DNA from: a virus
Taxonomy: Duplodnaviria; Caudoviricetes
Strand: one strand, 5' to 3'
Virus record (IMG/VR): IMGVR_UViG_3300027212_000010
Coordinates: 3,097 to 67,096 of that record
Length of the DNA stretch: 64,000 nucleotides
Below, piece after piece: positions 1 to 43,278 of this stretch. Both the position numbers and the translations under genes were made by a program. Numbering within the stretch: the stretch's first letter is position 1; each line of letters opens with the position of its first letter. The notes beneath the pieces are model-generated. The model saw nothing but the letters and a program-made list of their open reading frames with translations, searched no databases and was not told where the DNA came from.

Positions 1-89
1 AGGGAGCGGGTTGGGTTGATTTGTCAGACCTACCCGATACAATAAAACTAGATATAGAAATCGCACTACTACAAGAAGGAGCACTATAA

Positions 90-239
90 ATGACTATCAC
101 TTACTCAATATGGGACGGCGCACAACTACTAGGCGTTGATTTCAAGGCAACTAGCGCAGATGAAATGAATAAGGTCGTAGCAGACCTAATGAAAGTTTCT
201 CGTAATGTCGTAGCACATATGCGAAAGGTTGAAATGTAA
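90..239 (+). CDS. hypothetical protein (49 aa)
   Basis: Read by hand: MTITYSIWDG...KVEM. RBS AGAAGGAG, downstream of promoter at 22-43, TAATG-coupled to next ORF. Confidence 0.7.
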   Translation: MTITYSIWDGAQLLGVDFKATSADEMNKVVADLMKVSRNVVAHMRKVEM

Positions 240-394
240 TGATACCTACAGGATTTGAGTTATCTATAACTAACGAATACGGATTTGAGTTTGATAGTTT
301 CTTAGGGGCTATCTACTTACCTTGGCACACTATTATTATCACCGCCCTAGCACTAATCGCTTATAAGATTTATAAGAGAAAGAAGAATAAGTAA
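239..394 (+). CDS. small membrane protein (51 aa)
   Basis: MIPTGFELS...hydrophobic stretch followed by KIYKRKKNK; TAATG overlaps at both ends. Confidence 0.65.
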   Translation: MIPTGFELSITNEYGFEFDSFLGAIYLPWHTIIITALALIAYKIYKRKKNK

Positions 395-507
395 TGACTA
401 CTAATCGCCTACTAACTACCGCCGTCCAATTACTACTAGCGGGCGTTACTATCCCGCTACTAATCGCCGTAATCAAAGATATAAAAAATGGGGGACTAAA
501 TGAATAA
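394..507 (+). CDS. small hydrophobic protein (37 aa)
   Basis: MTTNRLLTTAVQLLLAGVTIPLLIAVIKDIKNGGLNE; coupled to both neighbours. Confidence 0.55.
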   Translation: MTTNRLLTTAVQLLLAGVTIPLLIAVIKDIKNGGLNE

Positions 508-697
508 ATCACAATTAGAGAAAGACTTAGAAATAAAAGAAAGCTTTATAGATTTACTAAATGATATTTATCCTACTGTAAAAATCGGTTACTCTACATT
601 CACACCCGCCGAAATTCTAGAGTGTTGCGATCCCGTAGCGTTTGCGATTGGATTAGTGGAGCACGAGGATTATTTAGCAGAATTAGAAAATGAATAA
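500..697 (+). CDS. hypothetical protein
   Basis: ORF track; GGGGG RBS; part of operon. Confidence 0.7.
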   Translation: MNKSQLEKDLEIKESFIDLLNDIYPTVKIGYSTFTPAEILECCDPVAFAIGLVEHEDYLAELENE

Positions 698-736
698 ATA
701 AATAACGGCGTGTCGGCTTGACAAATCGGCAAGCCG

Positions 737-906
737 CCCGCATATGTATGGGGTTATCCACAGGGTTAAGAGAGTTATCCACAACCCCTGGAATTTGCAG
801 CACGACACGCCCGAGATCTTTGTGATGTTTATCACAACACCCACGCTCCACATATTGAGACAAACTCTTGCAAAATTAACACTTTGTCAGTCCTATCCGC
901 TATAAT
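737..906 (+). promoter_or_regulatory. composite module 1: palindrome, 2 DnaA boxes, CCTGGAATTT, CRP-type box, TGTCAG promoter
   Basis: CCCGCATATGTATGGG 737-752; TTATCCACA 754-762 and 775-783; CCTG 787; TGTGA-N6-TCACA 821-836; TGTCAG 885; TATAAT 901. Confidence 0.85.
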
Positions 907-937
907 GTCTACTATAACAACAACGAAAGGAAGTCAA

Positions 938-1069
938 ATGAATCTAGATGAATTCAAGGCTCATGTTACAGAAACACGCAAGCAATCTAAAATCGAGGCG
1001 ATGTCAGTCCTCTCTGCTACAATTACCAAATCAACAACAACGAAAGAAGGTGCCACTAATGGCAACTAA
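938..1069 (+). CDS. hypothetical protein
   Basis: Start moved to ATG 938 after CAACGAAAGGAAG RBS. Confidence 0.6.
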   Translation: MNLDEFKAHVTETRKQSKIEAMSVLSATITKSTTTKEGATNGN

Positions 1070-1265
1070 ACTATACACAATCGAAAACTTGCTAATCGGC
1101 AAGAATTACCGCTCAAACTCTCGCCACTTTTCAGGTGAGATTATTTCTGCAACTGCTCGCCCTGAAATTTGGTATGGCGAAAAAACTGAAGCGTTTTTAA
1201 TCGAAGTTAGAACTGGTGGCTTGCGAAATAAATTCGCAACAATCGCAGTAAAGGTTGGTGAATAA
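1059..1265 (+). CDS. hypothetical protein
   Basis: MATKLYTIENLL...; RBS GAAGG, downstream of promoter at 1002. Confidence 0.7.
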   Translation: MATKLYTIENLLIGKNYRSNSRHFSGEIISATARPEIWYGEKTEAFLIEVRTGGLRNKFATIAVKVGE

Positions 1266-1409
1266 ATGGGAATGGTAAAAGATAGCCTTGACGGGATTTT
1301 TCTTTGCGATAATTGCGACACTCTCGCAACTGTATGGCAAAAGGGAAACACAATTGAAATCACACAATGCAAATGCGTAACACTAGATTGGGAGAGCGAC
1401 AATGTATAA
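1266..1409 (+). CDS. small Cys-rich protein (47 aa)
   Basis: MGMVKDSLDGIFLCDNCDT...QCKCV; CxxC...CxC. Confidence 0.6.
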   Translation: MGMVKDSLDGIFLCDNCDTLATVWQKGNTIEITQCKCVTLDWESDNV

Positions 1410-1611
1410 AATAACTTTATCTTATGACGGAAATGCACCACACTGGCAACAAGACTACGCAAGCGAATTTGATGCGTGGAAAGATTTCTTTGCATTTACT
1501 GATTGGGGATTTGCTAACGAATTCTCAACTGTAAATATTTACAATTCAGAAATGAAATGCTTTACTAAACATTTTTATCGTGAGGAAAGAAAGGTCGTAA
1601 CTGTAAAATGA
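1402..1611 (+). CDS. hypothetical protein
   Basis: ORF track; overlapping operon. Confidence 0.7.
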   Translation: MYKITLSYDGNAPHWQQDYASEFDAWKDFFAFTDWGFANEFSTVNIYNSEMKCFTKHFYREERKVVTVK

Positions 1612-1802
1612 CAATGACACGCAAGCACTTCGAGGCAATTGCTGAAATCTTAAATTATAATTCAGGTAAAACTCACCCTGCTGTTTTTTCTAAAATGGTT
1701 TTAGACTTTGCGGAATTGTGTGCAAATGAAAATCCTAATTTCAATGTAACTAAATTCTATGAAGCGAGTAACTATGTCATTCCAAAACTCTCTACGAGAT
1801 AA
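1608..1802 (+). CDS. hypothetical protein
   Basis: ORF track; ATGA overlap. Confidence 0.7.
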   Translation: MTMTRKHFEAIAEILNYNSGKTHPAVFSKMVLDFAELCANENPNFNVTKFYEASNYVIPKLSTR

Positions 1803-1908
1803 AGTAAAACGCATTCAGGAATTGCGTCGCAGTAATGCGGCGCAACCTGTTCGCAATAAAAAAACTTACACACGCAAGATCAAACATAAAAATAAAAATG
1901 CAGAGTAA
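1774..1908 (+). CDS. small basic protein (44 aa)
   Basis: MSFQNSLRDKVKRIQELRRSNAAQPVRNKKTYTRKIKHK; the ELRRSNAA motif resembles small actinophage proteins as I recall them. Confidence 0.55.
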   Translation: MSFQNSLRDKVKRIQELRRSNAAQPVRNKKTYTRKIKHKNKNAE

Positions 1909-1927
1909 TGCATAAGTATGCAGCTGG

Positions 1928-2027
1928 CCCGCATATGTGCGGGGTCGGGCGTGTCGTTATGATGTGATCTAAATCACCCTGGAAATTTGCGTGTCGATTA
2001 GGAAATGTCAGTCTGTTCTGTTATAAT
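1928..2027 (+). promoter_or_regulatory. composite module 2 (palindrome, GGCGTGTCG, CRP-type box, promoter)
   Basis: CCCGCATATGTGCGGG 1928-1943; TGTGA-N6-TCACC 1963-1978; CCTG 1978; TGTCAG 2006; TATAAT 2022. Confidence 0.8.
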
Positions 2028-2057
2028 TCTCTTAACTACCAACGAAAGAGGTTCCTC

Positions 2058-2267
2058 ATGGAATTATTTACCGTCGCTTGCTTGAACTATGAAATTTGTG
2101 GCGCTCAAGAAACTTTTGATTCTGTTGAAGAGTATGAAATTTATGGAGATGACTGGACTTGTGGCGAATGCTACGATTCAGAAGAAATGGAATTCTATGA
2201 ACTAGGTGGCTGGGCGGATTCCGACGCCCTTGCTTCCGCTGGCCATGGCATGGATGAGGATTACTAA
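2058..2267 (+). CDS. acidic Cys-containing hypothetical protein
   Basis: RBS AAAGAGG; CxxxxxC...CxxC. Confidence 0.7.
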   Translation: MELFTVACLNYEICGAQETFDSVEEYEIYGDDWTCGECYDSEEMEFYELGGWADSDALASAGHGMDEDY

Positions 2268-2298
2268 TATGTCAGACGTCACCGCTATAATTACCCCT

Positions 2299-3018
2299 AT
2301 GAAATTAAAACGTTCTAATGACCGCAAGGTGGCTAACCTTGTCACAAAAAATGGCAAGCAAGCAGCAATTGCGAACACGTTCGGATTACCTGCAGGCAAG
2401 GCCTACTCGTGCCCTGGCGCCACTAGTATTTGCGAAAGCGTGTGCTATGCGGGAAAGCTTGAAAAGTTATTCCCTGGCGTAAAAACTAATCTGTTACACA
2501 ATTGGGAATTGTTACGCAATGCAGACAATGACACAATGGTGGCCCTATTAGAAGAAATGATTATTGATTTTGTTTCTGATTGTGATAAGAAGAGTGCTCC
2601 TAAGTTATTCCGTATCCACTGGGACGGCGATTTCTTTAATGATATTTATACATATGCCTGGAAGACTGTTATCATGAACCACCCCGATATTCAATTTTGG
2701 GTTTACACACGTGTAAAGTCTGCAGCGCTTATTCTTAAGGATGTTGTTAATCTTTCACTGTATTATTCTACCGATGATGAGAATAAGGAAATAGCATTCG
2801 ATTTAAAGAAGAATTCTAAGGTCCGCCTTGCTTACCTAGGCAAGACATTCGCGGCCACCGAAGACACGATGAAAGAGTTAACGGGCAAGCCTGGCGCTAA
2901 GTGTCCCGAGAATATGAAATCAATTCCGCTTATCTCTAGCAATGGGTCCGCCTGTGTTTCTTGTGGTCTCTGTGTCTACGGTAAAGCAGACATTCGATTT
3001 TCTGCGAGTAAAAAATAA
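2299..3018 (+). CDS. GP88-like protein (radical-SAM-like fold family)
   Basis: FGLPAG...SCPGAT..C...CYA and RIHWDGDFF motifs. Start inferred at 2299 (leaderless, 13 nt after TATAAT 2286). Confidence 0.7.
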   Translation: MKLKRSNDRKVANLVTKNGKQAAIANTFGLPAGKAYSCPGATSICESVCYAGKLEKLFPGVKTNLLHNWELLRNADNDTMVALLEEMIIDFVSDCDKKSAPKLFRIHWDGDFFNDIYTYAWKTVIMNHPDIQFWVYTRVKSAALILKDVVNLSLYYSTDDENKEIAFDLKKNSKVRLAYLGKTFAATEDTMKELTGKPGAKCPENMKSIPLISSNGSACVSCGLCVYGKADIRFSASKK

Positions 3019-3170
3019 TGCATGATGTTATTGGATCCCTGATCGGAATTATATTAATCATGTTTTTATTATCACCAATTATTTTAACGGTGTACATGTT
3101 GTGGAGCTCTAAAATAGATATCGATAACGACGGCCAGGATGATTTGCCTTATCGTTGGGAAAATAAATAG
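3018..3170 (+). CDS. small membrane protein (50 aa)
   Basis: MHDVIGSLIGIILIMFLLSPIILTVYML...DIDNDGQDD; one TM helix followed by a DxDxDG loop. Confidence 0.55.
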   Translation: MHDVIGSLIGIILIMFLLSPIILTVYMLWSSKIDIDNDGQDDLPYRWENK

Positions 3171-3184
3171 GCTGGTACCCTATC

Positions 3185-3345
3185 GGCGTGTTCCCTTGAC
3201 AAAAGGGGACCGCTGCCCCCATATGTGCGGGGTTATCCACAGGCTTACGGGAGTTATCCACAGACCCTGAAAATTTGTGAGAAATATCACAAAGCTCCGA
3301 CACGCCGAGAATGGATTAGGTAATGTCAGTGCCCTATGCTAAAAT
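3185..3345 (+). promoter_or_regulatory. composite module 3 (palindrome, 2 DnaA boxes, CRP-type box, promoter)
   Basis: Palindrome 3216-3231; TTATCCACA 3233 and 3254; CCTG 3266; TGTGA-N6-TCACA 3276-3291; TGTCAG 3324; TAAAAT 3340. Confidence 0.85.
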
Positions 3346-3374
3346 ACTCTTATCCAACCAACGAAAGGTAACAA

Positions 3375-3599
3375 ATGTCTAATCTAATGAAAGTTCCACA
3401 CACAGTTGAGTTCGAGGCAGTAATTGACTTGGACAAGATTCCCGCTAACTTACTACCTGCGCTAATTGCACTTGACACTTATTCAGTTACAAAGATGTGC
3501 AAAGAAGCAACACTACACGCACTTGGAATGTCAAATGTAATTCCACTTGCTAATGAAAATAACACTTGGGCTGAAGTAACAATTAAGGAAGGTAACTAA
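3375..3599 (+). CDS. hypothetical protein
   Basis: RBS CAACGAAAGG. Confidence 0.75.
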   Translation: MSNLMKVPHTVEFEAVIDLDKIPANLLPALIALDTYSVTKMCKEATLHALGMSNVIPLANENNTWAEVTIKEGN

Positions 3600-3601
3600 C
3601 A

Positions 3602-3871
3602 ATGGGAAATAACACTGCGCTAGATTTAGCAAGCGAGTTTGATTTAGAACAAGGTATTGCTTATCACTTACAAGGTAATCATTACCCGCCCGTTCCACTT
3701 TCTATGGTGAAGCCTTGCATCGATGCTATCGATGCTTGGTGGGAAGAAGATTCAGATAGACTAATTGAAATGCCTGAAGGCGTATCTTATCGTGGAGATA
3801 AGTTTGCACCTGCTCACGCAATAATTGACCAGCATCACCTACACGCTTGGCTGCAAGATACCGACTACTGA
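3602..3871 (+). CDS. hypothetical protein
   Basis: ORF track; RBS AAGGAAGG. Confidence 0.75.
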   Translation: MGNNTALDLASEFDLEQGIAYHLQGNHYPPVPLSMVKPCIDAIDAWWEEDSDRLIEMPEGVSYRGDKFAPAHAIIDQHHLHAWLQDTDY

Positions 3872-3886
3872 GATCAAAACCAGGCG

Positions 3887-3961
3887 TGTGAGATTACTCA
3901 CACGCTTGGCATCTCAAATAATAAGATTGGGGTAGTAAATGTCAGACCCCTTTGCTATAAT
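3887..3961 (+). promoter_or_regulatory. CRP-type box plus TGTCAG promoter
   Basis: TGTGAGATTACTCACA 3887-3902; TGTCAG 3940; TATAAT 3956. Confidence 0.8.
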
Positions 3962-3986
3962 AAGACCCTACAAGAAAGGAAGCAAA

Positions 3987-4169
3987 ATGACAGTAAATGG
4001 ATACACTTACAAGGTTGGCGATTTATTCACCACCCTAAAGTCAAAAAAGACAGGAGTAATCAAAGAGATTATTCCTAACGCATCTGGCTCGGTGCGAGTG
4101 CTACTAGAAATGCCAACAAAGGAAACTCGTTGGACAACAGTTAGCGACTCAGCCCTAACAGGCGCATAA
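3987..4169 (+). CDS. small SH3/KOW-like beta protein
   Basis: YKVGDLF...KTGVIKEI...VRVLLE; start after AAAGGAAG RBS. Confidence 0.6.
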   Translation: MTVNGYTYKVGDLFTTLKSKKTGVIKEIIPNASGSVRVLLEMPTKETRWTTVSDSALTGA

Positions 4170-4333
4170 AAAGGAGGCACACACCCTAACAGGGTGCTAA
4201 GCCACGAAACAGGGGCAGTTTGAGAGAGTGTTCTCGCCCAATGTCGTAAGTAAGAACTCTCTCCCTTCGGGGAAATGTCAGACCCCCCTGCTATACTATC
4301 CATAACAACCAACCAACGAAAGGTAATAAATAA

Positions 4334-4750
4334 ATGAGCAGACAAATCACAGTAAAGGTAGCAACAAGCAAAGTAATCAAGGCACTAGAAGGCACTCTTG
4401 CTAAACTAGAAAATGATTACAACACACAAACAGCCAAAGAAGCAAAGTTCGGCAAAGCGCAAGAAGCGTGGCGCAAGGAAATTGGTGCTTGGGCTATAAA
4501 GAACTTCGCAAAGGCAGAGAACCTTCGCACAAACTATCGTTCTTGGAACAACACCCTCAATGTTGATTTCGACATCATCACAAAGGAAGGAAACTTTCCT
4601 ACTGAACCTGAAAAGGACTTTGAGGTTATCCATCAGCACCAGTATCGTGAGATGAAAGAGGACATCACAAATGCTCTCACCATCTTAAAGATGACAGATG
4701 AGGAAACAGTAAATGCTTCTACAATGAAGCAGATTGCTAAGTATCTCTAA
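4334..4750 (+). CDS. hypothetical protein
   Basis: RBS CAACGAAAGG; promoter at 4276. Confidence 0.8.
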   Translation: MSRQITVKVATSKVIKALEGTLAKLENDYNTQTAKEAKFGKAQEAWRKEIGAWAIKNFAKAENLRTNYRSWNNTLNVDFDIITKEGNFPTEPEKDFEVIHQHQYREMKEDITNALTILKMTDEETVNASTMKQIAKYL

Positions 4751-4787
4751 GTAATTTGGGGGGCAGAACTAAAGTCCTGAACCCAAA

Positions 4788-4814
4788 CGACCTGAGTAAG
4801 TCGCCAAACTGCTC
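4788..4814 (+). ncRNA. candidate H-type pseudoknot, copy A
   Basis: CGAC/GTCG stem around loop CTGAGTAA; loop GAGTA can pair with TGCTC 4810-4814. Confidence 0.5.
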
Positions 4815-4849
4815 TCCCTTCGGGGACAACTACTAACAAAGGTAATACA

Positions 4850-5077
4850 ATGGCAAATCGTTTCAGAGTAGAAATCTACGACGCAAACAAAATGAATGAT
4901 GTAACTATTTATTCAGAGCAAGGTGTAGACAAAGAATACCTAACTGAATTAGTTTATTCTAATCTGCGAAAGTTTAGCGGAAAAGTAAATGCTTACGTTT
5001 TCGATAACGTAAAGAAAAAGAAAACAACAGCAATGTTTCTTGATGAGCACACAGTAAATAAATATAACGTAATTTAA
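4850..5077 (+). CDS. hypothetical protein
   Basis: RBS AAAGG. Confidence 0.75.
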   Translation: MANRFRVEIYDANKMNDVTIYSEQGVDKEYLTELVYSNLRKFSGKVNAYVFDNVKKKKTTAMFLDEHTVNKYNVI

Positions 5078-5122
5078 AACACGGCGCTGCAGTTGGGAAA
5101 TCCGATCTCAACTGCAAAGCTG

Positions 5123-5258
5123 CCCGCATAGGTGTGGGGTTATCCACAGGCTTACGACTGCTTGTGGATAACCCTGGAATTTTGTGAGATTACTCACACG
5201 GATCAAAACGGACAAATGACTAACTAATCTAGACAATGTCAGTGCCACCTGTTATAAT
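5123..5258 (+). promoter_or_regulatory. composite module 4 (palindrome, inverted DnaA box pair, CRP-type box, promoter)
   Basis: Palindrome 5123-5138; TTATCCACA 5140; TGTGGATAA 5163; CCTG 5173; TGTGA-N6-TCACA 5183-5198; TGTCAG 5237; TATAAT 5253. Confidence 0.85.
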
Positions 5259-5291
5259 TGCATCTACAACCAATCGAAAGGAAATAAATCC

Positions 5292-6296
5292 ATGGCTCAT
5301 AATCTAGAAATGGAAAACGGCGAAGTTGCTTTTGCTCTTCGTGGTGCACCTGCTTGGCATAATCTTGCCAATCGTATCTTCACACAAGATGAGGAAGTTA
5401 CAACCGCAACAATGCTTGAAGAAGCAAAGTTAGCGAATTGGAATGTTCGCTTGTCTCCACTAACTGACCACATCTCAGAATCTTGGAATGATGTATCTAA
5501 TGCATCTCTCGTGATTCGTGATAACCCATTCAACAAGGAAATCGATGTCCTTGCAACTGTCGGCAAGCGTTACAAGCCTGTGCAGAATGAAGAATTGTTT
5601 GCATTCGCTGATGCAATTCATGATGCCAATGCTGATTGCCGTTGGGAATCCGCTGGCTCTCTTAAGAAGGGCAAAGTTGTGTTTGGAACTGTTGATATTC
5701 CCCGCACAATGGTTCTTGACCCACAAGGCGCTAACGATGAAACTAAACTATATCTAATTGTTTGGACATCACACGATGGTTCTGTTGCTGTTCAAGCAGC
5801 CGTCACACCTGTTCGTGTTGTTTGCCAAAACACACTAAACCTTGCAATGAAGAATGCTAAGCAATCTTTCAAGATTCGCCACACGCAATCTGTTGAAGGT
5901 CGCATTCAAGTTGCTCGTGAAACTCTTGGGCTTGCTCTTGGTTATTTCGATGAATTCGAAGTTCAAGCAAAAGCACTTTACTCACAAGCAATTACCGATG
6001 CTGAATTCTCTAAGTTGATTCAGACAATCTATCCTAAGCCAGAAAAAGATGCTAAGGGCGCAATCAAAAAGTGGGAGAACAAAGTTGTTCTGCTTGATGA
6101 CCTTTATCATAACTCACCAACTAACGCTACAATCAAGGGAACAAAGTGGGGTGCGTTCAATGCACTAACTGAGCGCCTTGATTATTATCGTTCAGGTCGT
6201 GGCAATGGCGAAACACTTATGGCGGGTGCATCAGGGTTTGACCCAGTTCTAACCGCAGAAAAAAATAAGTTGTATCGCATGGTTGCAACTTTCTAA
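5292..6296 (+). CDS. DUF932 / TIGR03299 phage-plasmid protein
   Basis: MAH......AWH.L; Y.P.QN...F.F; SHDGS; PVRVVC.NTL; F..RHT motifs. Confidence 0.85.
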   Translation: MAHNLEMENGEVAFALRGAPAWHNLANRIFTQDEEVTTATMLEEAKLANWNVRLSPLTDHISESWNDVSNASLVIRDNPFNKEIDVLATVGKRYKPVQNEELFAFADAIHDANADCRWESAGSLKKGKVVFGTVDIPRTMVLDPQGANDETKLYLIVWTSHDGSVAVQAAVTPVRVVCQNTLNLAMKNAKQSFKIRHTQSVEGRIQVARETLGLALGYFDEFEVQAKALYSQAITDAEFSKLIQTIYPKPEKDAKGAIKKWENKVVLLDDLYHNSPTNATIKGTKWGAFNALTERLDYYRSGRGNGETLMAGASGFDPVLTAEKNKLYRMVATF

Positions 6297-6310
6297 AAAA
6301 AACTAAATAA

Positions 6311-6338
6311 AAATCCTGAGCATGATTTAAAACTGCTC
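6311..6338 (+). ncRNA. candidate H-type pseudoknot, copy B
   Basis: AAATC/GATTT stem around loop CTGAGCAT; GAGCA pairs with TGCTC 6334-6338. Confidence 0.5.
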
Positions 6339-6351
6339 AATATTTTTTTTT

Positions 6352-6425
6352 GATCTCATAGCTCAATTGGTTAGAGCGCTACCCTGTCACGGTAGAGGTT
6401 GCGAGTTCAAGTCTCGTTGGGATCG
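6352..6425 (+). tRNA. tRNA-Asp(GTC)
   Basis: Acceptor GATCTCA/TGGGATC, anticodon loop CTGTCAC, T-loop TTCAAGT, discriminator G; no CCA encoded. Confidence 0.92.
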
Positions 6426-6446
6426 CTTGACAAATGCCGAGAGATG

Positions 6447-6537
6447 CCCCCATATGTGCGGGTGTGATTCTTATCATACGAGAGGACTAAGAAACCCCTG
6501 GAATTCTATTGTATATGTCAGTGGGCCCTGGTACAAT
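6447..6537 (+). promoter_or_regulatory. composite module 5
   Basis: Palindrome 6447-6462; TGTGA-N6-TCATA 6463-6478; CCTG 6497; TGTCAG 6516; TACAAT 6532. Confidence 0.8.
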
Positions 6538-6543
6538 TCTCTC

Positions 6544-7206
6544 ATGACCAACGAACTAGTATCAAGCAAGTATACATTTGTCTGCGACCCAGATGAATGT
6601 GATTGTTTAATCGAATTAACATCATCTGATGGATTTGGATTCCCATCAGGTGTGACAGAACTCACATGTCCGTGTGGCCGTAAGACAACCTTATTGTCAG
6701 TGGAGCATGCTACAATTGCACCTTCAACCCAAACGAAAGAGGAAAAAATGGAAGAGACAACAACACCTGCAGTAACAGTTCCCGATACATATAACTCTAA
6801 TCTATTGGTTACCTACAAAGTAATCCGTGGCTATTCAGATGCAGAATATGCAACTGATAAAGTTGCATCTCTTGAATGGGACTTGCACAATGGACGCCAA
6901 TCTCAAAAAGTTGCAAATATGCTACAGGGCAAAATTGACACAGTCAAAGATATTATCACTGAAGCATATGGCGATTCAGAAGACCAAGAAACACTTCGTT
7001 CTATTGCTGAAGCGCTTGATATTCCATTAACTCGAACAGTTGAGTGGACTGCATCTATCGAGGTTAGCGGAACTATTGAATTAGATTTGCTTTCTGATTA
7101 TGATACTGACATCGAGTCAGAGATTACAGATACTCTTTATGTTGATGCACAGAATGGCAATGTTGAAATCGTTGACCAAGAAGTATGTCATGTTAGGGAA
7201 TGCTAA
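6544..7206 (+). CDS. hypothetical protein, Cys-rich N-terminus; probable second in-frame start at 6749
   Basis: Leaderless ATG 12 nt after TACAAT 6532. Internal promoter 6695-6716 and RBS AACGAAAGAGG precede MEETT. Confidence 0.7.
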   Translation: MTNELVSSKYTFVCDPDECDCLIELTSSDGFGFPSGVTELTCPCGRKTTLLSVEHATIAPSTQTKEEKMEETTTPAVTVPDTYNSNLLVTYKVIRGYSDAEYATDKVASLEWDLHNGRQSQKVANMLQGKIDTVKDIITEAYGDSEDQETLRSIAEALDIPLTRTVEWTASIEVSGTIELDLLSDYDTDIESEITDTLYVDAQNGNVEIVDQEVCHVREC

Positions 7207-7418
7207 TGTATTTTGAACTCACCGCTCCATCTCAGGTAGCCTTTGCAAGGGCTATCTGGGATGCAGAGTTAATCGGATTAGACCCAATGACAATTGGTCC
7301 GTTGACTTTCAACATCGGAACTGGTAGTATTGAGAAAGTAAGTCGCATTAGAGATAAGTATAACTTAAAAGAAAGTTATACATCAGAGTATGAACCGACA
7401 GGTTACACGGGGAGATAA
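7206..7418 (+). CDS. hypothetical protein
   Basis: TAATG coupling. Confidence 0.7.
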   Translation: MYFELTAPSQVAFARAIWDAELIGLDPMTIGPLTFNIGTGSIEKVSRIRDKYNLKESYTSEYEPTGYTGR

Positions 7419-7420
7419 AA

Positions 7421-7567
7421 ATGTCAGACTATAAAGATGGATTTGATGACGGGTATAAGTTTGCTCGTGAAGAGATTATGGAGAAGTTAGCAGAGATTGA
7501 TATTGCTGACATCGACTCTTGGATTCTTGACCGTCTTTCTGAGATGATCGAAGGTGGCAACCTGTGA
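7421..7567 (+). CDS. hypothetical protein (48 aa)
   Basis: MSDYKDGFDDGYKFAREE...; RBS GGGAG. Confidence 0.7.
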   Translation: MSDYKDGFDDGYKFAREEIMEKLAEIDIADIDSWILDRLSEMIEGGNL

Positions 7568-7755
7568 TGGCTGAATGGCTTAAGTGTGACCAATGTGCAG
7601 CTCAAGCAATGTGGCAAGCAAAGAAAGATGCTATGTCTCTTTATTTTTGCGGACATCATAAGAATAAGCAAGGCGAGTCGCTTGACGACTGGGCCGAGGA
7701 ACTGATACAATTGCTCAACTACGAGCAGAATCAACTACTAACAAAGGCGGAATAA
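7564..7755 (+). CDS. small Zn-binding protein (CDxCxAQA...FCGHH)
   Basis: Motif typical of small actinobacterial Zn proteins. Confidence 0.65.
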   Translation: MMAEWLKCDQCAAQAMWQAKKDAMSLYFCGHHKNKQGESLDDWAEELIQLLNYEQNQLLTKAE

Positions 7756-7756
7756 A

Positions 7757-8131
7757 ATGGGAGACAGAGCAAACTTTGGTTTTAAGGACCGTAAGGGCGA
7801 TACAGTATTTCTATACGGGCACTGGGCTGGACACCGCATGCTTGAGAATTTAGCAAATGCAGTCGAAGCGGCACGTCCACGTTGGACAGATGAATCATAT
7901 GCAACACGTATTGCTATCAGTCATTTAATTAATGATGAATGGAAAAGCGAAACGGGTTGGGGCATTAGCGTTAACCAATTAGCAGACAATGAGCACAAGG
8001 TACCTATTATTAATTGGGCCGCCAAAACGTTCACACTTATGGAAGAGGACCTCACCACGGAAGTATTCAGTTCTAGTTTGGATGTATTTGTAAATAAGTA
8101 CAGTCAACTAGAAGAGCCCGCTATGGTATAA
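7757..8131 (+). CDS. conserved phage hypothetical protein
   Basis: MGDRANFGF...LYGHWAG; RBS AAGGCGG. Confidence 0.75.
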   Translation: MGDRANFGFKDRKGDTVFLYGHWAGHRMLENLANAVEAARPRWTDESYATRIAISHLINDEWKSETGWGISVNQLADNEHKVPIINWAAKTFTLMEEDLTTEVFSSSLDVFVNKYSQLEEPAMV

Positions 8132-8136
8132 TTAAT

Positions 8137-8303
8137 CTAGGACTTAGGTCCTGGTTTTAATAAAGAATATGATATGGTGCGGCTAGTTAAGCGTGTCCCG
8201 CAAGTCGCTAAGTAAAGCGGATCTATTCCTTTCGTTGGAGATCCAGGCAGCCTTATCATTACCCCCTAGTCAGCTTCAGCTCTGATACTAGGGGGATTTT
8301 TTT
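8137..8303 (+). ncRNA. candidate standalone small RNA (about 165 nt)
   Basis: Extended -10 TG-G-TATAAT at 8124-8132, several hairpins, closed by an intrinsic terminator; longest ORF seen about 13 aa. Confidence 0.45.
8262..8303 (+). terminator. intrinsic terminator
   Basis: CCCCCTAGT...ACTAGGGGG stem followed by A and T7. Confidence 0.85.
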
Positions 8304-8305
8304 GG

Positions 8306-8451
8306 CCCGCAAAAGATTGAGGGTAACATAATTTGTTTACGACGTCAATTTAAAATCGCCTGAATTTCTGTGATCTTGACCACATGCATACAAAATGTGG
8401 TGTGACTCACACCCAAATAGTATTCCATATGTCAGTGGGTCAGTGTATAAT
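8306..8451 (+). promoter_or_regulatory. composite module 6 with two CRP-type boxes
   Basis: TTACG 8337; CCTG 8359; TGTGA-N6-CCACA 8369-8384; TGTGG-N6-TCACA 8396-8411; TGTCAG 8430; TATAAT 8446. Confidence 0.75.
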
Positions 8452-8478
8452 AATCACATATCAACGAAAGGATATAAT

Positions 8479-9222
8479 ATGCCAAATTGGGTGTATAACG
8501 GTTTAACAATTGAAGGTAATCCTGACCAAGTAAAGTCTTTAATTAAACAGATGAATAAGCCATTTGTTTATTCTATTGAAGCAAATGGTGATTTATCATT
8601 TGGGATTAGACAACGTAAGTTTGTTAATCCTATCTTCTCTTTTCATAATATCTATTCATATGTAGATGCTGGTGTATCTGAGAATGATTACCACTCTCAA
8701 CCGCCGTCCTCTAAAACAGATGAGAATTGGTTTAAGTTTGATACCAACGATTGGTATAACTTTAATGTCCGTGAGTGGGGCACTAAATGGGATGTGGCTG
8801 TATGTGAGGATGACAAGTATCCTAATACTAATATGGAGGAAGCCGAGAACGGTGAGAACTATGTAGTTCATTATAACTTTGAAACTGCTTGGTCTCGTCC
8901 AATGCCAGCCATTCAAAAACTATCTGCACAATACCCAACACTACTATTTACTTTATCATATGAGGAAGAAACAGGCTGGGGTGGAGAAATGGAAATCCTT
9001 CGTGGTGAAGTTATATCAGAATCAGAATATGATTCTATGTGCCGTGATTGTGATGCAACTGACCAAATGGAATACTGCGAAGAAGAAGACTGTGGTCAAA
9101 TTTGTGGCAACTGCCACTGGCTTGGCGAGGCAGACCTAGAGGCTGTGGCTAAATGTCAGACCCATAGTATATACTTAGAAACTAAAGTTCCCGAATATCG
9201 AAAGGCGGAAATAAATGGCTGA
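8479..9222 (+). CDS. YubB/DUF1281-like ferredoxin-fold protein
   Basis: MPNWVYN.L.I.G; WYNFN..EWGTKWD; FETAWS.P motifs; RBS CAACGAAAGG. Confidence 0.75.
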   Translation: MPNWVYNGLTIEGNPDQVKSLIKQMNKPFVYSIEANGDLSFGIRQRKFVNPIFSFHNIYSYVDAGVSENDYHSQPPSSKTDENWFKFDTNDWYNFNVREWGTKWDVAVCEDDKYPNTNMEEAENGENYVVHYNFETAWSRPMPAIQKLSAQYPTLLFTLSYEEETGWGGEMEILRGEVISESEYDSMCRDCDATDQMEYCEEEDCGQICGNCHWLGEADLEAVAKCQTHSIYLETKVPEYRKAEING

Positions 9223-9430
9223 GCAATTTATAGATACAATAGCAGAGCACATTACAGGTGCAATGCAACAAGAAATTGGTGAAGCGTTATTTGACCAATG
9301 GTCTTATAACAATTTAGAGGAGGGTGAGGCATATGCTGAATTTAGATTTATGGAATATGCTTCTCGTGAATTAAAGCAACAGTATAACGAATACTATGGC
9401 TATATTGAGGGAGATGAGTTCCTATTATGA
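9215..9430 (+). CDS. hypothetical protein
   Basis: RBS AAAGGCGG; promoter at 9154. Confidence 0.7.
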   Translation: MAEQFIDTIAEHITGAMQQEIGEALFDQWSYNNLEEGEAYAEFRFMEYASRELKQQYNEYYGYIEGDEFLL

Positions 9431-9603
9431 TGTTAGGATATACTGCAGAGGATTTAGATCGTATGACTAATGCTGTTCATGATGCTAAGTTATTTTATCT
9501 TAGGACCCCGTCCGATTTAATGGACAAGGAACCTTTGAGAAAAGACCTGGAGGATGCAGTCAGCTTTTTCCAAGGTCTGTGGGCAGAAGGGTATTTCGAC
9601 TAA
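9427..9603 (+). CDS. hypothetical protein (58 aa)
   Basis: MMLGYTAEDLDRMTNAV...WAEGYFD; ATGA overlap. Confidence 0.65.
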   Translation: MMLGYTAEDLDRMTNAVHDAKLFYLRTPSDLMDKEPLRKDLEDAVSFFQGLWAEGYFD

Positions 9604-9711
9604 TGGGGGCTAAATGTCAGCATTACTGGGAGTGTTCAGATGTCCCTGGAATTTTTACTTGTCAGTGCTCTATGGTAAGATACTTCAATAGAGAAACGGG
9701 CGAATATCATT

Positions 9712-9909
9712 ATGAATAAATCATCAAGGTTTATGGAGTATCTAAAGATACATCTAATTAGTTTAGAACAAGACTTAGAACAGATTGATTATGTAAATGG
9801 TCATCATTTCTATAGAGTTAAACAAGCAGAGATTGAAAACACCAGGCACATTTTGTCAGTGGCTACTGATATAATGAACTCTTCTAACGAAAGGTATAAC
9901 AATGAATAG
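9712..9909 (+). CDS. hypothetical protein
   Basis: Downstream of promoter at 9660. Confidence 0.65.
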   Translation: MNKSSRFMEYLKIHLISLEQDLEQIDYVNGHHFYRVKQAEIENTRHILSVATDIMNSSNERYNNE

Positions 9910-10198
9910 AACAGACATTGGGCTCCCGCCCCATTTGCAACGCATGGTCAACCTTGACATGGACGGTGCAGATATTCTGCACGGCGAACTAAAAGTGCTT
10001 ATGGTTGAGGCTGAGAAGCAATTGGAATATGCAACGGAAGCCGAAGAAGAATCAGGCGAAGCCATGGATTCCATGGAACGCAAATATTGGGAAGGCGTCC
10101 TTGAAACATATGGAGAACTATACGGTCTTACATATGACATAGCATTTGCTAAGAACGATAAACTAATTAGAGATATGAAGGAGCACGTAAATGGCTGA
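9902..10198 (+). CDS. hypothetical protein
   Basis: RBS AACGAAAGG; promoter at 9854. Confidence 0.75.
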   Translation: MNRTDIGLPPHLQRMVNLDMDGADILHGELKVLMVEAEKQLEYATEAEEESGEAMDSMERKYWEGVLETYGELYGLTYDIAFAKNDKLIRDMKEHVNG

Positions 10199-10550
10199 CA
10201 TGGACCTGCAGGAAAAGACACGCATGCAAGATACATATACTGAGATTGAAGATATCATTGCCAAGATAACTAAACTTCCTGTTGGCCTGCCCCTGGTTTG
10301 GGTGTATGCCTGGGATGTTGCACGGGATCTATACACAAACATCCAAGAGGGTGCCGAGGAAGAATACTGCGTCACAGAGGACATAGAAGACGTATGGCAG
10401 ATGTTCTGGGAAGACGCAGACAAGAATGGCTGGTCCCTAGAGTATGGCGCAGAAGACCTACACGAGGGCATTAGAGACTGGATGATTGACAGGAACATCA
10501 TTGATGAGGTCCCTGAAGATGATGAGGAGGAATCAGATGAAGATGAGTGA
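10191..10550 (+). CDS. acidic hypothetical protein
   Basis: RBS AAGGAG. Confidence 0.75.
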   Translation: MADMDLQEKTRMQDTYTEIEDIIAKITKLPVGLPLVWVYAWDVARDLYTNIQEGAEEEYCVTEDIEDVWQMFWEDADKNGWSLEYGAEDLHEGIRDWMIDRNIIDEVPEDDEEESDEDE

Positions 10551-10683
10551 CATATACTTGAATGATCAGTTAGACAAAGCCCAAAAGCTTTTGTGGGGTG
10601 GGTCCGAAACTGAGAATATTGAAGCACATAACATCATTGCTAAATTAATCAGTGATCGTATTGAGCAAGCAGATCTTTCGTAG
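10543..10683 (+). CDS. hypothetical protein
   Basis: Start moved to MSDIYL. Confidence 0.6.
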   Translation: MSDIYLNDQLDKAQKLLWGGSETENIEAHNIIAKLISDRIEQADLS

Positions 10684-10732
10684 GGGCCAAATTTTTTCCT
10701 TACGGTTGTAAAAGAAAATAGCCTGAAGCCTA

Positions 10733-10761
10733 TTTACAATTTTGTAAATAGTTGATATAAT
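10733..10761 (+). promoter_or_regulatory. sigmaA-type promoter with overlapping palindrome
   Basis: TTTACA-17-TATAAT; TTTACAA-TT-TTGTAAA covers the -35. Confidence 0.7.
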
Positions 10762-10793
10762 AAATAAAACATCTCTTGAAAGGGGATTATCAA

Positions 10794-10943
10794 ATGGCAA
10801 CAAAGCGTGAATATCTAAAGTCACAAGGCATTACAGTAGGTGTACGTGGTCGTTTCTCAGGAGCAGCTAAGGTGGCTCTAGCCGAGGCAGTAGCCAAGGG
10901 CGTTACATTTACAGCAGAAGTACCAGCAAACAAGGCGAAGTAA
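10794..10943 (+). CDS. standalone Lsr2 C-terminal DNA-binding-domain-like protein (49 aa)
   Basis: Not in ORF track. KREYLKSQGITVGVRGRF aligns without gaps to Lsr2 IREWARRNGHNVSTRGRI, including the RGR hook. Has its own promoter, RBS and terminator. Confidence 0.75.
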   Translation: MATKREYLKSQGITVGVRGRFSGAAKVALAEAVAKGVTFTAEVPANKAK

Positions 10944-10948
10944 TTCTT

Positions 10949-10996
10949 GGGACGGGGTTAGGGCTTCGTTGGTCCTTGACCCCGTCTCTTATTTTT
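10949..10996 (+). terminator. intrinsic terminator overlapping next promoter
   Basis: 15-bp stem GGGACGGGGTTAGGG/CCTTGACCCCGTCTC followed by TTATTTTT; contains TTGACC-17-TATAAT. Confidence 0.8.
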
Positions 10997-11028
10997 GATA
11001 TAATCTAAGGTCAGGCGGAAGGCGGAAT

Positions 11029-11391
11029 ATGAGTAAATCACCAGAAATCAAAGTAGCAGAATCAATAGTAAATCTAACAGAAGACCATTGGTTTAATCCA
11101 ACAATCTTTGGTAGATATTTGGCAGAACAGCCAATGTATACAATTGACAGAATTATGGAAATGGTTGTATCAATCATATCCGAACAATCTAAGATACATG
11201 GAGTTCATGGCTATACATCAGAAGGTTTGATGTTAGCAGTTGAATTAAATGAATGTATCAAGGCTTACCAAGAAGATAATCAATTAGAATCTCTTAAACT
11301 TCCAGCCCGTTCTTTTAAAGTTCCAAAGCGGGAGGAACCAATAGTAAGACAAGGGTTTGGATGGCGAGAAGAACAAGATCCATTCAATTAA
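11029..11391 (+). CDS. hypothetical protein
   Basis: ORF track; last + strand gene of the early arm. Confidence 0.75.
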   Translation: MSKSPEIKVAESIVNLTEDHWFNPTIFGRYLAEQPMYTIDRIMEMVVSIISEQSKIHGVHGYTSEGLMLAVELNECIKAYQEDNQLESLKLPARSFKVPKREEPIVRQGFGWREEQDPFN

Positions 11392-11960
11392 CAATAGACA
11401 TATATGAATAGATGAATGTCTGGTTAGATAGATAAACATATCTAGCCCAAATTATCCACAGGGTTATCCACATCCTGTGGATTTTTTGTATGTGTGGGCA
11501 TGGGGGCAGCTTTTTTCATTTACGACACATGATCTCAAATCCCTGAAATTTAAAACATGTGGGCCAAATTTCTCGTTTACGAGGCCTTGACAAATACGCC
11601 TGAAAATGCTACAGAATAATGTCTATATGATTAATTATACATATAGAATGTCGACAAATCTGTAGAGAATATGGCAGAATAAGCCAAAATCCCTTGCATA
11701 TTCTATTGACAAATATGGATCAATATGCTGCACATTTCGGCTATTGACATTACGATTAAGATGGGATATGCTCAATTACATATGTATGTTTAACTATATA
11801 TATCTATAGTATATGATATGTTATCTAGAGTATAAATTCTCCACAATACTCCACTTTGCTCCACTATATAAGCCTTCTAAGGGCTATTAGAGAGGAGATA
11901 AATGGGAGGGGGATATAGGAGTTAGGTGCCTAAATGATCTATTTTCCAGAGCTATCTGGC
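11392..11960. other. candidate replication origin / arm boundary
   Basis: ORF-free gap between convergent arms. TTATCCACA at 11452 and 11464; TTCTCCACA at 11837, the first of three CTCCAC copies at 10-bp period; AT-rich core. Confidence 0.5.
11454..11487 (+). terminator. intrinsic terminator built from DnaA boxes
   Basis: ATCCACAGG/CCTGTGGAT stem, loop GTTATCCACAT, then T-tract. Confidence 0.65.
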
Positions 11961-24958: not shown

Positions 24959-25272
24959 TTTGTTTTACCCCCTGGCTTTCCTTCAAGCTCAACTCTAACA
25001 CCATAAGACTGAAGAATATTTTTTACCATTTCTATATATTCTATAACCCTAACCCTCATTGATCCGTCGTATTGTGCAAAATTATTTTCATACAACCTTA
25101 TTGCTAAAAAGTCAGGATATTTTACAATATCCATTTCAAGATCTGGTGCAGGGGACTTCAACTCTCTTACCTTTAACGCCATCTCTTTATTATAGAACAC
25201 TGGCTTATTTGGTTCTCCAGTCCATTCATTCACGCCATATTTAAAGTGATCTTTATTCTTATCAATAAACAT
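24955..25272 (-). CDS. hypothetical protein
   Basis: ORF track. Confidence 0.7.
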   Translation of the reverse strand: MFIDKNKDHFKYGVNEWTGEPNKPVFYNKEMALKVRELKSPAPDLEMDIVKYPDFLAIRLYENNFAQYDGSMRVRVIEYIEMVKNILQSYGVRVELEGKPGGKTK

Positions 25273-25573
25273 GCTTTTCCTTTATACGCTTCCACACATC
25301 TTTTGTTTTATGTGCGTTCTTAGACTTATCTAATGATCCTGAGCTTAAGTAAACTCCGCCCCAGATTCCATAGTCACTATTTGCAACACCTTCATCATGG
25401 CAAATTTTAATTACTGGGCAAGACAAGCAAGCCTCATCAATGTTTTTTGCTATGTTTATATCAGACTCATATTTATCAAAAAATAAATTAGTGTCCATCC
25501 CCTTGCATAGGGCAAGGTCATACCACTTTACATCTTCTTTATCTATACCTAAATCATTTAAAATGTTTGACAT
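25262..25573 (-). CDS. whiB: WhiB-family Fe-S transcription factor
   Basis: W...ALC.G.D..LFF; CLSCPV...C; GIWGG. Confidence 0.9.
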   Translation of the reverse strand: MSNILNDLGIDKEDVKWYDLALCKGMDTNLFFDKYESDINIAKNIDEACLSCPVIKICHDEGVANSDYGIWGGVYLSSGSLDKSKNAHKTKDVWKRIKEKHVY

Positions 25574-39140: not shown

Positions 39141-39467
39141 CTAAGACTTATTGGCAATTTTTAAAAGAATTAGGTATCCTATTAGATCATCAATATCATT
39201 GTCTCCAGGGAAAGCCTGATCATTCTGAATTCTATTTAACTTGTCATCAATACGGACTCTAATTTGTTCCTTTGAATCCGCCTTTGAAAATATACGAATT
39301 GGATCTAGCGCTGAGTTCCCATACGACACATTCTTTTTAATTAGCATCTCTGCCATCTCTAAACACTCAACAATAATTTTTTGTCCTGATGGTGCATCTG
39401 TTGCAATTAATTGAAGGTCGGTTATCCACGCCTGGTACCCGCCCGATTTATTTGGGTAGTCACTCAT
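39141..39467 (-). CDS. DUF1599-like nucleotide-modification-associated protein
   Basis: KKNVSYGNS; RIDDKLNRI; DLIGYLIL. Confidence 0.65.
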   Translation of the reverse strand: MSDYPNKSGGYQAWITDLQLIATDAPSGQKIIVECLEMAEMLIKKNVSYGNSALDPIRIFSKADSKEQIRVRIDDKLNRIQNDQAFPGDNDIDDLIGYLILLKIANKS

Positions 39468-39610
39468 TTTTTTCTTAGCAGTCCAAACTCTTGTAAATAT
39501 CTCTGTATAGTCATAGCAGAGACACCGCACTCTTTACCTATTTCTGTAACTGTTTTCTTTTGTACTATGTACCTTCTGTAAAGCCAATCTTTACTCTGAT
39601 AAAGTTTCAT
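39464..39610 (-). CDS. small HTH DNA-binding protein (48 aa)
   Basis: MKLYQSKDWL...TVTEIGKECGVSAMTIQRYL; read by hand. Confidence 0.7.
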   Translation of the reverse strand: MKLYQSKDWLYRRYIVQKKTVTEIGKECGVSAMTIQRYLQEFGLLRKK

Positions 39611-40173
39611 CGCTTAGTAAGCACCTGGTTACTATAATGTGCAATACCAAAACTATCTGCAACGTCAAAATCCACAATTTCTAAACCATATTTCTTATTA
39701 AAGTAATCAGCAGTTCTTTGCTTCCTCATATTACGTAATTGATTCTTATACCATGAATCTGCATAGCCTGGGTTTGCCAACCTTATTCCAGACTTCTCAT
39801 CCTTTGTCGGATTCTTGTTGCCAATGTACGCCTGCCACGAGGATGGGCTAATAGTAATAACCTTAGCGCCAGTAGACATGAGCTCAGCAATAACAACTCC
39901 ATAGACATAAGACAATTTTATCACAGCATCTGGTGATCTGACAAGTATGGCTCCTTCTACGGCAATATAATCACTCTTAAGTTCATCTAACATCATTGCC
40001 ATTTTATTTTTTGCATCATGAATTTTTTCATAAATGTCTTCTCCGACAAGATTGATCTTTCCCCATTTTAAAGGGACATCATCTTCCATTAAGCAAAAAG
40101 CTATAGAGTTTGTTGAGGCGTCTATACCTAACACTCTATTGGCTTTAGTTTTAACTAGGCTAGCTAATTTCAT
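39607..40173 (-). CDS. RuvC-like Holliday junction resolvase
   Basis: LGIDAS; IAVE; D.ADS.GIA. Confidence 0.8.
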   Translation of the reverse strand: MKLASLVKTKANRVLGIDASTNSIAFCLMEDDVPLKWGKINLVGEDIYEKIHDAKNKMAMMLDELKSDYIAVEGAILVRSPDAVIKLSYVYGVVIAELMSTGAKVITISPSSWQAYIGNKNPTKDEKSGIRLANPGYADSWYKNQLRNMRKQRTADYFNKKYGLEIVDFDVADSFGIAHYSNQVLTKR

Positions 40174-43078: not shown

Positions 43079-43278
43079 CATCCGACCTTGTGTCTTGTTT
43101 CGTGACCGTCTTTGCATTTCCAATACATCTCCATGCTTTGATTGTTAAATTCATAAGATTCTACATAAAGATCGCATTTTGAACAAGGCCTAATGCTCTC
43201 TATAATTTCAATGCTACCGTCAATGACAGGAGTATCTAAATTTACTTTATTTAAAAACTCATCAAGATTTGGCATCAA
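43078..43278 (-). CDS. Zn-ribbon protein
   Basis: CSKC...CKDGH. Confidence 0.65.
   Translation of the reverse strand: MMPNLDEFLNKVNLDTPVIDGSIEIIESIRPCSKCDLYVESYEFNNQSMEMYWKCKDGHETRHKVG

Follow-up and report, generated by a model that had tools for sequence, protein, structure and literature searches.

The stretch of DNA described here (the window) comprises 64,000 nucleotides and corresponds to bases 3097-67096 of the 67-kb IMG/VR record IMGVR_UViG_3300027212_000010, a phage of the Caudoviricetes with an estimated completeness of about 62%; its complete relatives have genomes of 112-120 kb. The first 11.4 kb form an early arm of small genes, all of them on the plus strand, and minus-strand genes are found from 11.96 kb on. 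Replication and recombination are represented in the window by genes for DNA polymerase III alpha, DnaB, primase, RecA (43262-44266, minus strand) and RuvC. Within the early arm, and twice in the gap that follows it, a three-part sequence scaffold is repeated ten times, in each case intergenic and upstream of genes. The scaffold is a candidate for a promoter-type site with exchangeable operator positions.

The scaffold and its ten copies

The consensus of the scaffold reads TGnGGG, 13 nt, TTACG(R), 16 or 17 nt, and C-CCTGRAAWTT. Exact occurrences of TTACG-N16/17-CCTGRA number six in the window, with 0.04 expected, and six or more were obtained in none of 100 shuffles. When the scan was extended to GGG-N13-TTACG-N16/17-CCTGRA with at most one mismatch in total, exactly ten sites were returned, all on the plus strand; no further site was found on either strand of the 64 kb, and none in 100 shuffles. 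They are the ten TTACG-like sites of a preliminary description of this DNA, which had placed a CCTG(A/G)A block 21-22 nt after each of them; the interval is 21 nt in copies 1-5 and 22 nt in copies 6-10. The question raised there, whether the motif is equally dense in coding or late regions, was tested, and the motif is absent from these regions. The 16-bp near-palindrome that had been described for five copies does start exactly 29 nt before the pentamer in each of them. Regarding its place in the scaffold, only the 3' half is constant: TGnGGG occupies positions -19 to -14 from TTACG in all ten copies, including the five without a palindrome, and roughly one copy in two has the 5' half, whose sequence varies with that of the stem.

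Three intervals of the scaffold whose sequence is not fixed would provide operator slots, namely the 13 nt between GGG and TTACG (slot 1), the spacer between TTACG and the third block (slot 2) and the region that begins 10 nt past the start of CCTG (slot 3). Copy 1 (747..796) consists of TATGGG, 13 nt, TTAAG (766), 16 nt and CCTGGAATTT, with DnaA boxes at 754 and 775 occupying both of the first two slots. In copy 2 (1938..1987), TGCGGG, 13 nt, TTATG (1957), 16 nt and CCTGGAAATT are combined with GGCGTGTCG in slot 1 and a CRP-like box (1963-1978) in the spacer. Copy 3 (3226..3275; TGCGGG, 13 nt, TTACG at 3245, 16 nt, CCTGAAAATT) contains direct DnaA boxes at 3233 and 3254 and is followed by a CRP/Rex-like box (3276-3291) that lies 10 nt past the CCTG start. 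The DnaA boxes of copy 4 (5133..5182; TGTGGG, 13 nt, TTACG at 5152, 16 nt, CCTGGAATTT) are inverted (5140 and 5163), and a CRP/Rex-like box (5183-5198) follows here as well; the two DnaA boxes can form a 17-bp hairpin (5135-5176, plus strand) that encloses TTACG. This hairpin ends in CCCTG, is followed by a T-rich tail and was scored as terminator-like.

Copy 5 (6457..6506) lies directly 3' of a tRNA-Asp gene (6352-6426) and reads TGCGGG, 13 nt, ATACG (6476), 16 nt and CCTGGAATTC, with a CRP-like box (6463-6478) in slot 1. A search of the first 13 kb (1-13 kb) against Rfam matched this tRNA alone. The remaining copies have the longer spacer: copy 6 (8318..8368; TGAGGG, 13 nt, TTACG at 8337, 17 nt, CCTGAATTTC) is preceded by a canonical terminator (8263-8303) and followed by a CRP-like box (8369-8384); copy 7 (9604..9654; TGGGGG, 13 nt, TTACT at 9623, 17 nt, CCTGGAATTT) is devoid of the 5' hairpin half and begins at the stop codon that ends the gene before it; copy 8 (10681..10731; TAGGGG, 13 nt, TTACG at 10700, 17 nt, CCTGAAGCCT) is devoid of a hairpin. 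Copies 9 (11501..11551; TTACG-like pentamer at 11520) and 10 (11558..11608; pentamer at 11577) form a tandem pair in the non-coding gap past the early arm, the second following the first at a distance of 57 bp and carrying TTGACA within its spacer.

The arrangement was compared across 80 related phage loci. A relaxed three-part scan found 621 copies on the gene strand but a single one on the opposite strand; for the exact core the counts were 397 and three (209 distinct sequences). Counting close-range pairs (<20 nt), the gap between TTACG and CCTG was 16 nt in 155 cases, 17 nt in 242 and 18 nt in one, so that the constant spacing noted in the preliminary description is kept in the relatives. 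Between GGG and TTACG there are invariably 13 nt. Among 280 unique aligned copies from the relatives, the G positions of the TGnGGG block are conserved at 94-99%. In a non-redundant set of 99 dissimilar copies, conservation was 96-97% for GGG; T94 T98 A100 C87 G96, followed by a purine, for the pentamer; and C70 at position -1, then C94 C93 T92 G94, a purine, A95 A72 W T66 T64 for the third block. The spacer is A/T-rich in this set, with an A-tract right before CCCTG. A complete relative of 116 kb contains nine copies, all within its early arm and on the gene strand.

In a scan of viral contigs with a stringent version of the motif, at least 120 stretches were found to carry it, and 79 loci were examined. 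Of these loci, 78 share DNA with this phage group (all but one), and scaffolds and the PafBC-type promoters described below lie on the same strand in every examined locus that has them.

Slot contents, hairpins and accompanying promoters

The contents of the slots vary from module to module, as had been described, and are drawn from a small set of operator-like boxes. Among 572 unique copies, a DnaA box is present in the 13-nt slot in 22% and in the spacer in 22%, TTGACA is present in the spacer in 10%, and a TGTGA-N6-TCACA box starts exactly 10 nt past the CCTG start in 21%. Perfect TTATCCACA boxes number eight in the window (0.84 expected), all of them in modules or in the gap behind the arm. 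CRP-type boxes start at 1963, 3276, 5183, 6463 and 8369; the form TTGTGAG-N4-ATCACAA would be compatible with a Rex operator and with a CRP/GlxR site alike. Three of these boxes, in non-orthologous modules (3276, 5183 and 8369), occupy the +10 position from CCTG. Since their distance to the next (PafBC-type) promoter differs between modules, it is the scaffold that sets the position of the box, at a place that, judged by its spacing, would be that of an operator over a transcription start.

Perfect copies of GGCGTGTCG are confined to modules 1-3 (707-715, 803-811 on the minus strand, 1948-1956, and 3298-3306 on the minus strand); the sequence includes GACAC, the core of WhiA sites. The two copies of module 1 form an inverted pair that flanks the module. 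One further copy, at 1988, has a single mismatch, and with up to one mismatch allowed the count is eight (1.9 expected).

The optional hairpin of the first module spans 737..753 (plus strand), and its 3' arm is the TGnGGG element; equivalent hairpins are found at 1928-1944, 3216-3232, 5123-5139, 6447-6462 and 8306-8323. Of the 280 aligned copies, only 60-70% possess the 5' half of the palindrome (CCC at -29 to -27), and at least five Watson-Crick pairs can form in 166 of 369 unique copies. Among 42 orthologues of the module 5' of a DUF932 gene, the stem varies and yet stays paired (CCCGCAG/CTGCGGG, CCCCC/GGGGG, CCCCT/AGGGG). We take it that the upstream unit ends in this hairpin, which is added to the constant GGG block. 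A role as a strand-specific RNA was considered and set aside: internal stem mismatches are without bias (17 G.T versus 23 A.C) and reveal no transcribed strand, and minus-strand folds are no better than those of shuffles in five of the six modules tested. At 717, 3198 and 6426 (plus strand), in three unrelated modules, CTTGACAAA is found 18-21 nt 5' of the hairpin; it contains a perfect -35 hexamer that is not followed by a good -10.

The published PafBC promoter motif is tGTCgg(N10)tA(N3)T, with its first block at -23 to -28 (PMC8635444). The form TGTCAG-N10-TAnnnT fits this motif and occurs 17 times in the window, with 0.98 expected; 15 of the sites are in the early arm, on the plus strand (22-9875). 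The first that follows a scaffold, TGTCAG-N10-TATAAT at 885..906 (plus strand), lies 3' of copy 1, and equivalent promoters 3' of scaffolds begin at 2006, 3324, 5237, 6516, 8430 and 9660, so that seven of the ten copies are followed by such a site; the earlier statement that most copies lie upstream of a TGTCAG promoter is thereby borne out. The scaffold itself is devoid of tGTCgg-N10-tAnnnT and hence is no member of this class. From the scaffold to the next promoter the distance is 15-135 nt, with nearly every value at 51-76, and no single helical phase is kept. The modular phage enhancer proposed in the preliminary description finds no support here, as this distance is neither fixed nor phased.

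Copy 8 is followed by a sigma-A-type promoter (10733-10761) that serves the gene for a 49-aa Lsr2-like protein (10794-10943, plus strand). The gene thus has a promoter of its own, and it has its own terminator; its product has a match (E 2.5e-7) in the PHROG family of Lsr2-like DNA-bridging proteins and only a weak one to the Lsr2 DNA-binding domain of Pfam.

The gap (11.4-11.96 kb) opens with a terminator built from DnaA boxes (11454-11482), and the two tandem scaffolds come next. The gap lies between the converging arms, and in the relatives it holds two to four tandem scaffolds at intervals of 47-50 or 56-57 bp; sigma-A-like promoters in the gap are co-oriented with them. Copy 10 is followed by a conserved stem, GCTACAG...CTGTAGAG, for which a compensatory change (CTACAC...GTGTAG) is found in relatives. 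Past the tandem scaffolds, 11609-11960 is a strongly conserved non-coding stretch with three CTCCAC repeats about 10-11 bp apart and with TTGACA-N17-TATGCT promoters; its function may be that of an origin or a small RNA.

Regarding the host, the Lsr2-like mini-protein, the PafBC-type promoters and a WhiB protein (25262-25573, minus strand; 43.5 bits in Pfam at a cut-off of 23.6) point to an actinobacterium, and the sources of the samples point to fresh water. The nearest cultured relatives are Streptomyces phages of the BillNye group, to which the DNA polymerase III alpha is 58% identical; neither the scaffold nor PafBC-type promoters were found in the BillNye genome. An AhpC protein is encoded by the phage (16764-17300, minus strand), and its nearest genomic relatives, 60-70% identical, belong mostly to Burkholderiales and other Proteobacteria, not to Actinobacteria. 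As a clue to the host it is uninformative for this reason. A complete relative (G001) encodes, at locus L199 (29682-41360), a tape-measure protein of 3,892 aa that includes an OmpA-like domain; the tail would accordingly be extremely long. This open reading frame had been considered as a virion RNA polymerase of the N4 type that reads hairpin promoters, a candidate that was dropped with its assignment as a tape-measure protein.

Possible functions of the scaffold

Our preferred reading, held tentatively and given a little less than an even chance, is that the scaffold is a promoter-type recognition site for RNA polymerase on the sense strand, with operator slots. It is based on two unlike blocks whose distance tolerates one base, on the co-orientation with the genes, on the intergenic site at the head of units, on the AT-rich spacer and on the operator-like box at a fixed offset. 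As in the sigma-70 family, the two blocks are separated by a near-fixed spacer with a tolerance of about one base, and the element is intergenic, upstream of genes and co-oriented; such a tolerance between two unlike blocks is typical of sigma-factor promoters. TTACG(R) would then be a -35-like element and C-CCTGRAAWTT, 16 or 17 nt 3' of it, a -10-like element, with TGnGGG as a rigidly placed upstream element about 50 nt 5' of the presumed start. The scaffold heads early transcription units, usually 3' of a hairpin whose 3' arm is the GGG element, and a second, independent promoter, usually of the host PafBC type, always lies 3' of it. The slots hold DnaA boxes, CRP/Rex-type palindromes or others, depending on the module, and host regulators bound there would block the site. 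Promoter identity, firing in the sense direction and binding of the boxes by DnaA and a CRP/Rex-type protein are what we infer in this model.

Several points weigh against this reading. The downstream block, C-CCTGRAAWTT, is not a TAnnnT -10, so that the main sigma factor of the host is unlikely to read the scaffold unaided. A PafBC- or sigma-A-type promoter always follows, and the scaffold is never the sole promoter-like element of a coding gene. Promoters rarely have a conserved G-rich block near -50, and the direction of firing is not settled by the sequence alone. A reading factor did not emerge either. In five complete or near-complete relatives, Sigma70_r2 and Sigma70_ECF gave no match and no sigma-factor domain at all attained its Pfam threshold, and a WYL activator was not found in the four relatives searched. 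Finally, the motif showed no excess over control in 688 actinobacterial genomes (tallies of 201, 401, 6 and 80, that of 401 including one unpublished genome, G501, with one match on which no conclusion depends), which is a weak negative as the host is not identified; the recurrent matches that were inspected are coding.

Individual candidates for a reading factor were rejected on their own grounds. Matches to sigma region 4 remained below threshold and concerned a generic helix-turn-helix protein of 49 aa (39467-39613, minus strand). A PafBC-like activator encoded by the phage was dropped with the negative result for the WYL domain; in a phage without a WYL protein of its own, the PafBC-type promoters would depend on the PafBC of the host. 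An early protein of 220 aa (6544-7206, plus strand) gave a weak region-4 match (E 0.02) and has 3,528 metagenome homologues but no named family. Its structure model (47 diverse homologues, pLDDT 84) has N-terminal beta-strand elements and a long helix. It was rejected as a sigma-like reader, with no sigma or helix-turn-helix fold in the model and no PDB match at E <=0.001; from Cys motifs and weak fold matches, we read the modelled N-terminus as a probable zinc ribbon. A second, shorter product is suggested by a PafBC-type promoter inside the gene (6695) and by an ATG near 6748 that has a ribosome-binding site. Likenesses to sites of sigma-54, Bacillus sigma-H and sigma-32, to Bacteroidetes promoters and to lambda boxB were discarded for unfit spacing or pairing partners.

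The next explanation to be weighed, possible but on balance unlikely, is that the scaffold is not a promoter but the docking site of a phage or host DNA-binding protein or complex that marks the borders of early units. Such a protein might block read-through, insulate units, control the next promoter or act at a nearby replication origin. The position of the scaffold agrees with this: it is always placed between the end of one unit and the next unit's promoter, no gene has it as its sole promoter, and two to four copies stand in tandem, at intervals of 47-50 or 56-57 bp, in the non-coding gap that separates the arms. The three elements are spaced by about two helical turns, with A/T tracts in between, and no sigma factor or host regulon was found, which also favours a docking site. 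The one-base tolerance between unlike half-sites, however, is what sigma factors typically show and rigid DNA-binding proteins do not, no phase is kept in the distance to the next promoter, and no candidate DNA-binding protein emerged from the early arm.

A bolder proposal, which we consider doubtful, is that the scaffold is the site of a novel reprogramming of actinobacterial RNA polymerase, in which an adaptor, or a sigma-like factor without detectable likeness to known ones, reads GGG, TTACG and CCTGRAA together, and host DnaA and a CRP/Rex-type sensor exert gating from the slots, or in which antisense promoters shut the early genes.

Taken separately, the antisense model is improbable. Read on the minus strand, AAWTTYCAGGG-n-TTTT, the remainder of the 16/17-nt gap and CGTAA would constitute a promoter of the extracytoplasmic function (ECF) sigma type that fires back into the preceding early operon, and the antisense RNA would start with the CCC...GGG hairpin and help to shut off early genes. 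CGTAA (87-100% conserved) suits a CGT-type -10, the gap of 16/17 nt fits, and the T-tract next to the -35 block has its counterpart in sigma-E and sigma-W promoters, going by the generally known ECF consensus. The rigid distance between CGTAA and CCC suits a -10 with a downstream element, and the model accounts for the tandem copies at the 3' end of the arm and for the presence of another promoter wherever a scaffold precedes a gene. The ECF likeness pointed out in the preliminary description thus holds for CGTAA and for the gap, but not for the -35 (TTYCAGGG), which is devoid of the AAC core, and the early arm has plus-strand genes only and no minus-strand gene to be driven. The phage yielded no sigma factor, of the ECF type or otherwise, and with the motif nowhere else in the genome such a factor would serve antisense transcription alone. 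The mismatch type expected for a minus-strand RNA is not in excess (A.C 23 versus G.T 17), the minus-strand folds past the presumed starts are no stabler than shuffles in five of the six modules tested, and the CRP-like box would fall near -46, by general knowledge an unusual position for activation.

That the repeats serve chiefly as short homology patches for cassette exchange, in the manner of the promoter-early stem-loop (PeSL) elements, is very improbable: the arm is mosaic, with some segments in 7-20 of the 80 relatives and their neighbours in 65-80, strong breakpoint clusters lie just past modules (2025-2050, 3375, 6500 and 8500), and PeSLs are composite terminator/promoter motifs that mediate indels (PMC4122927), but equally strong clusters are found at scaffold-free gene borders (1025, 1250, 1400, 2275, 3000 and 10500), those near modules fall where ribosome-binding site and gene meet and not within the scaffold, and recombination needs no strict motif, spacing or orientation and so leaves the pattern of conservation unexplained. 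Recombination at the repeats may occur as a by-product. Of the PeSL alternative offered in the preliminary description, a fair analogy remains; homology breakpoints are located at gene borders generally.

Comparison with known systems

In phage T4, tandem early and middle promoters precede the same prereplicative genes, and one class requires an activator that replaces recognition of the -35 (MotA/AsiA); both classes keep the -10 of sigma-70, and the adaptor is encoded by the phage. The scaffold and the promoter behind it likewise represent two promoter classes in tandem on the preferred promoter-type reading, whereas the scaffold is without a sigma-A -10 and no adaptor is known. ECF sigma promoters, such as that of sigma-W (TGAAAC-N16-CGTA), resemble the minus strand of the scaffold in the strict 16/17-nt spacing, the CGTA-type element and the T-tract after the other block; they differ in that the scaffold shows no AAC in the -35, is opposite to every gene of the arm and has no cognate sigma that could be found.

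Among actinophages, the early promoters of Streptomyces phage phiC31 contain conserved inverted repeats in which the palindrome is a repressor operator of fixed sequence, and the mycobacteriophages of cluster K have start-associated sequences. The scaffold shares with both that it is an actinophage-specific motif, repeated many times before early genes and placed beside palindromes. The sequences are different, and the stem of the scaffold hairpin is variable and optional, unlike that of phiC31. To our knowledge, no promoter or operator with this three-part consensus has been described, and none turned up in literature searches, none of which was aimed at this motif.

The phage group is abundant in lakes. 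Hardly anything is known of the transcription signals of its hosts, actinobacteria that are uncultured or have been little studied. A directional signal this sharply delimited, with operator slots that can be exchanged, offers a handle for finding the factor that reads it. Its pairing with promoters of PafBC, the DNA-damage activator of the host, could reveal how a phage connects its first genes with several host sensors, namely DnaA, a CRP/Rex-type protein and PafBC, at the same time.

The PafBC promoters themselves are an actinobacterial class without a normal -35 that is read via an added factor ('sigma adaptation'; PMC8635444), and they are linked to the scaffold by location, 15 of them sharing the early arm and seven lying just 3' of a copy. 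The scaffold differs from them in that it has neither the GTC triplet at -26 nor the TAnnnT -10, and its blocks are 16/17 nt apart instead of 10. If a new polymerase adaptor were indeed at work, the idea of sigma adaptation would be extended beyond PafBC; if the scaffold is merely a lineage-specific promoter, it provides a useful annotation rule for these genomes.

A close analogy in arrangement is found in the PeSL cassettes of T4-type phages (PMC2839356, PMC4122927), which are short composites of a stem-loop and a promoter-like signal, as the scaffold and its optional hairpin would be, and which are likewise repeated in one orientation between the small early genes of a mosaic region. PeSLs contain an ordinary early promoter of the sigma-70 type, whereas the scaffold matches no known promoter consensus, has three parts and carries operator slots. 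It is best filed as a putative phage-specific promoter-terminator cassette.

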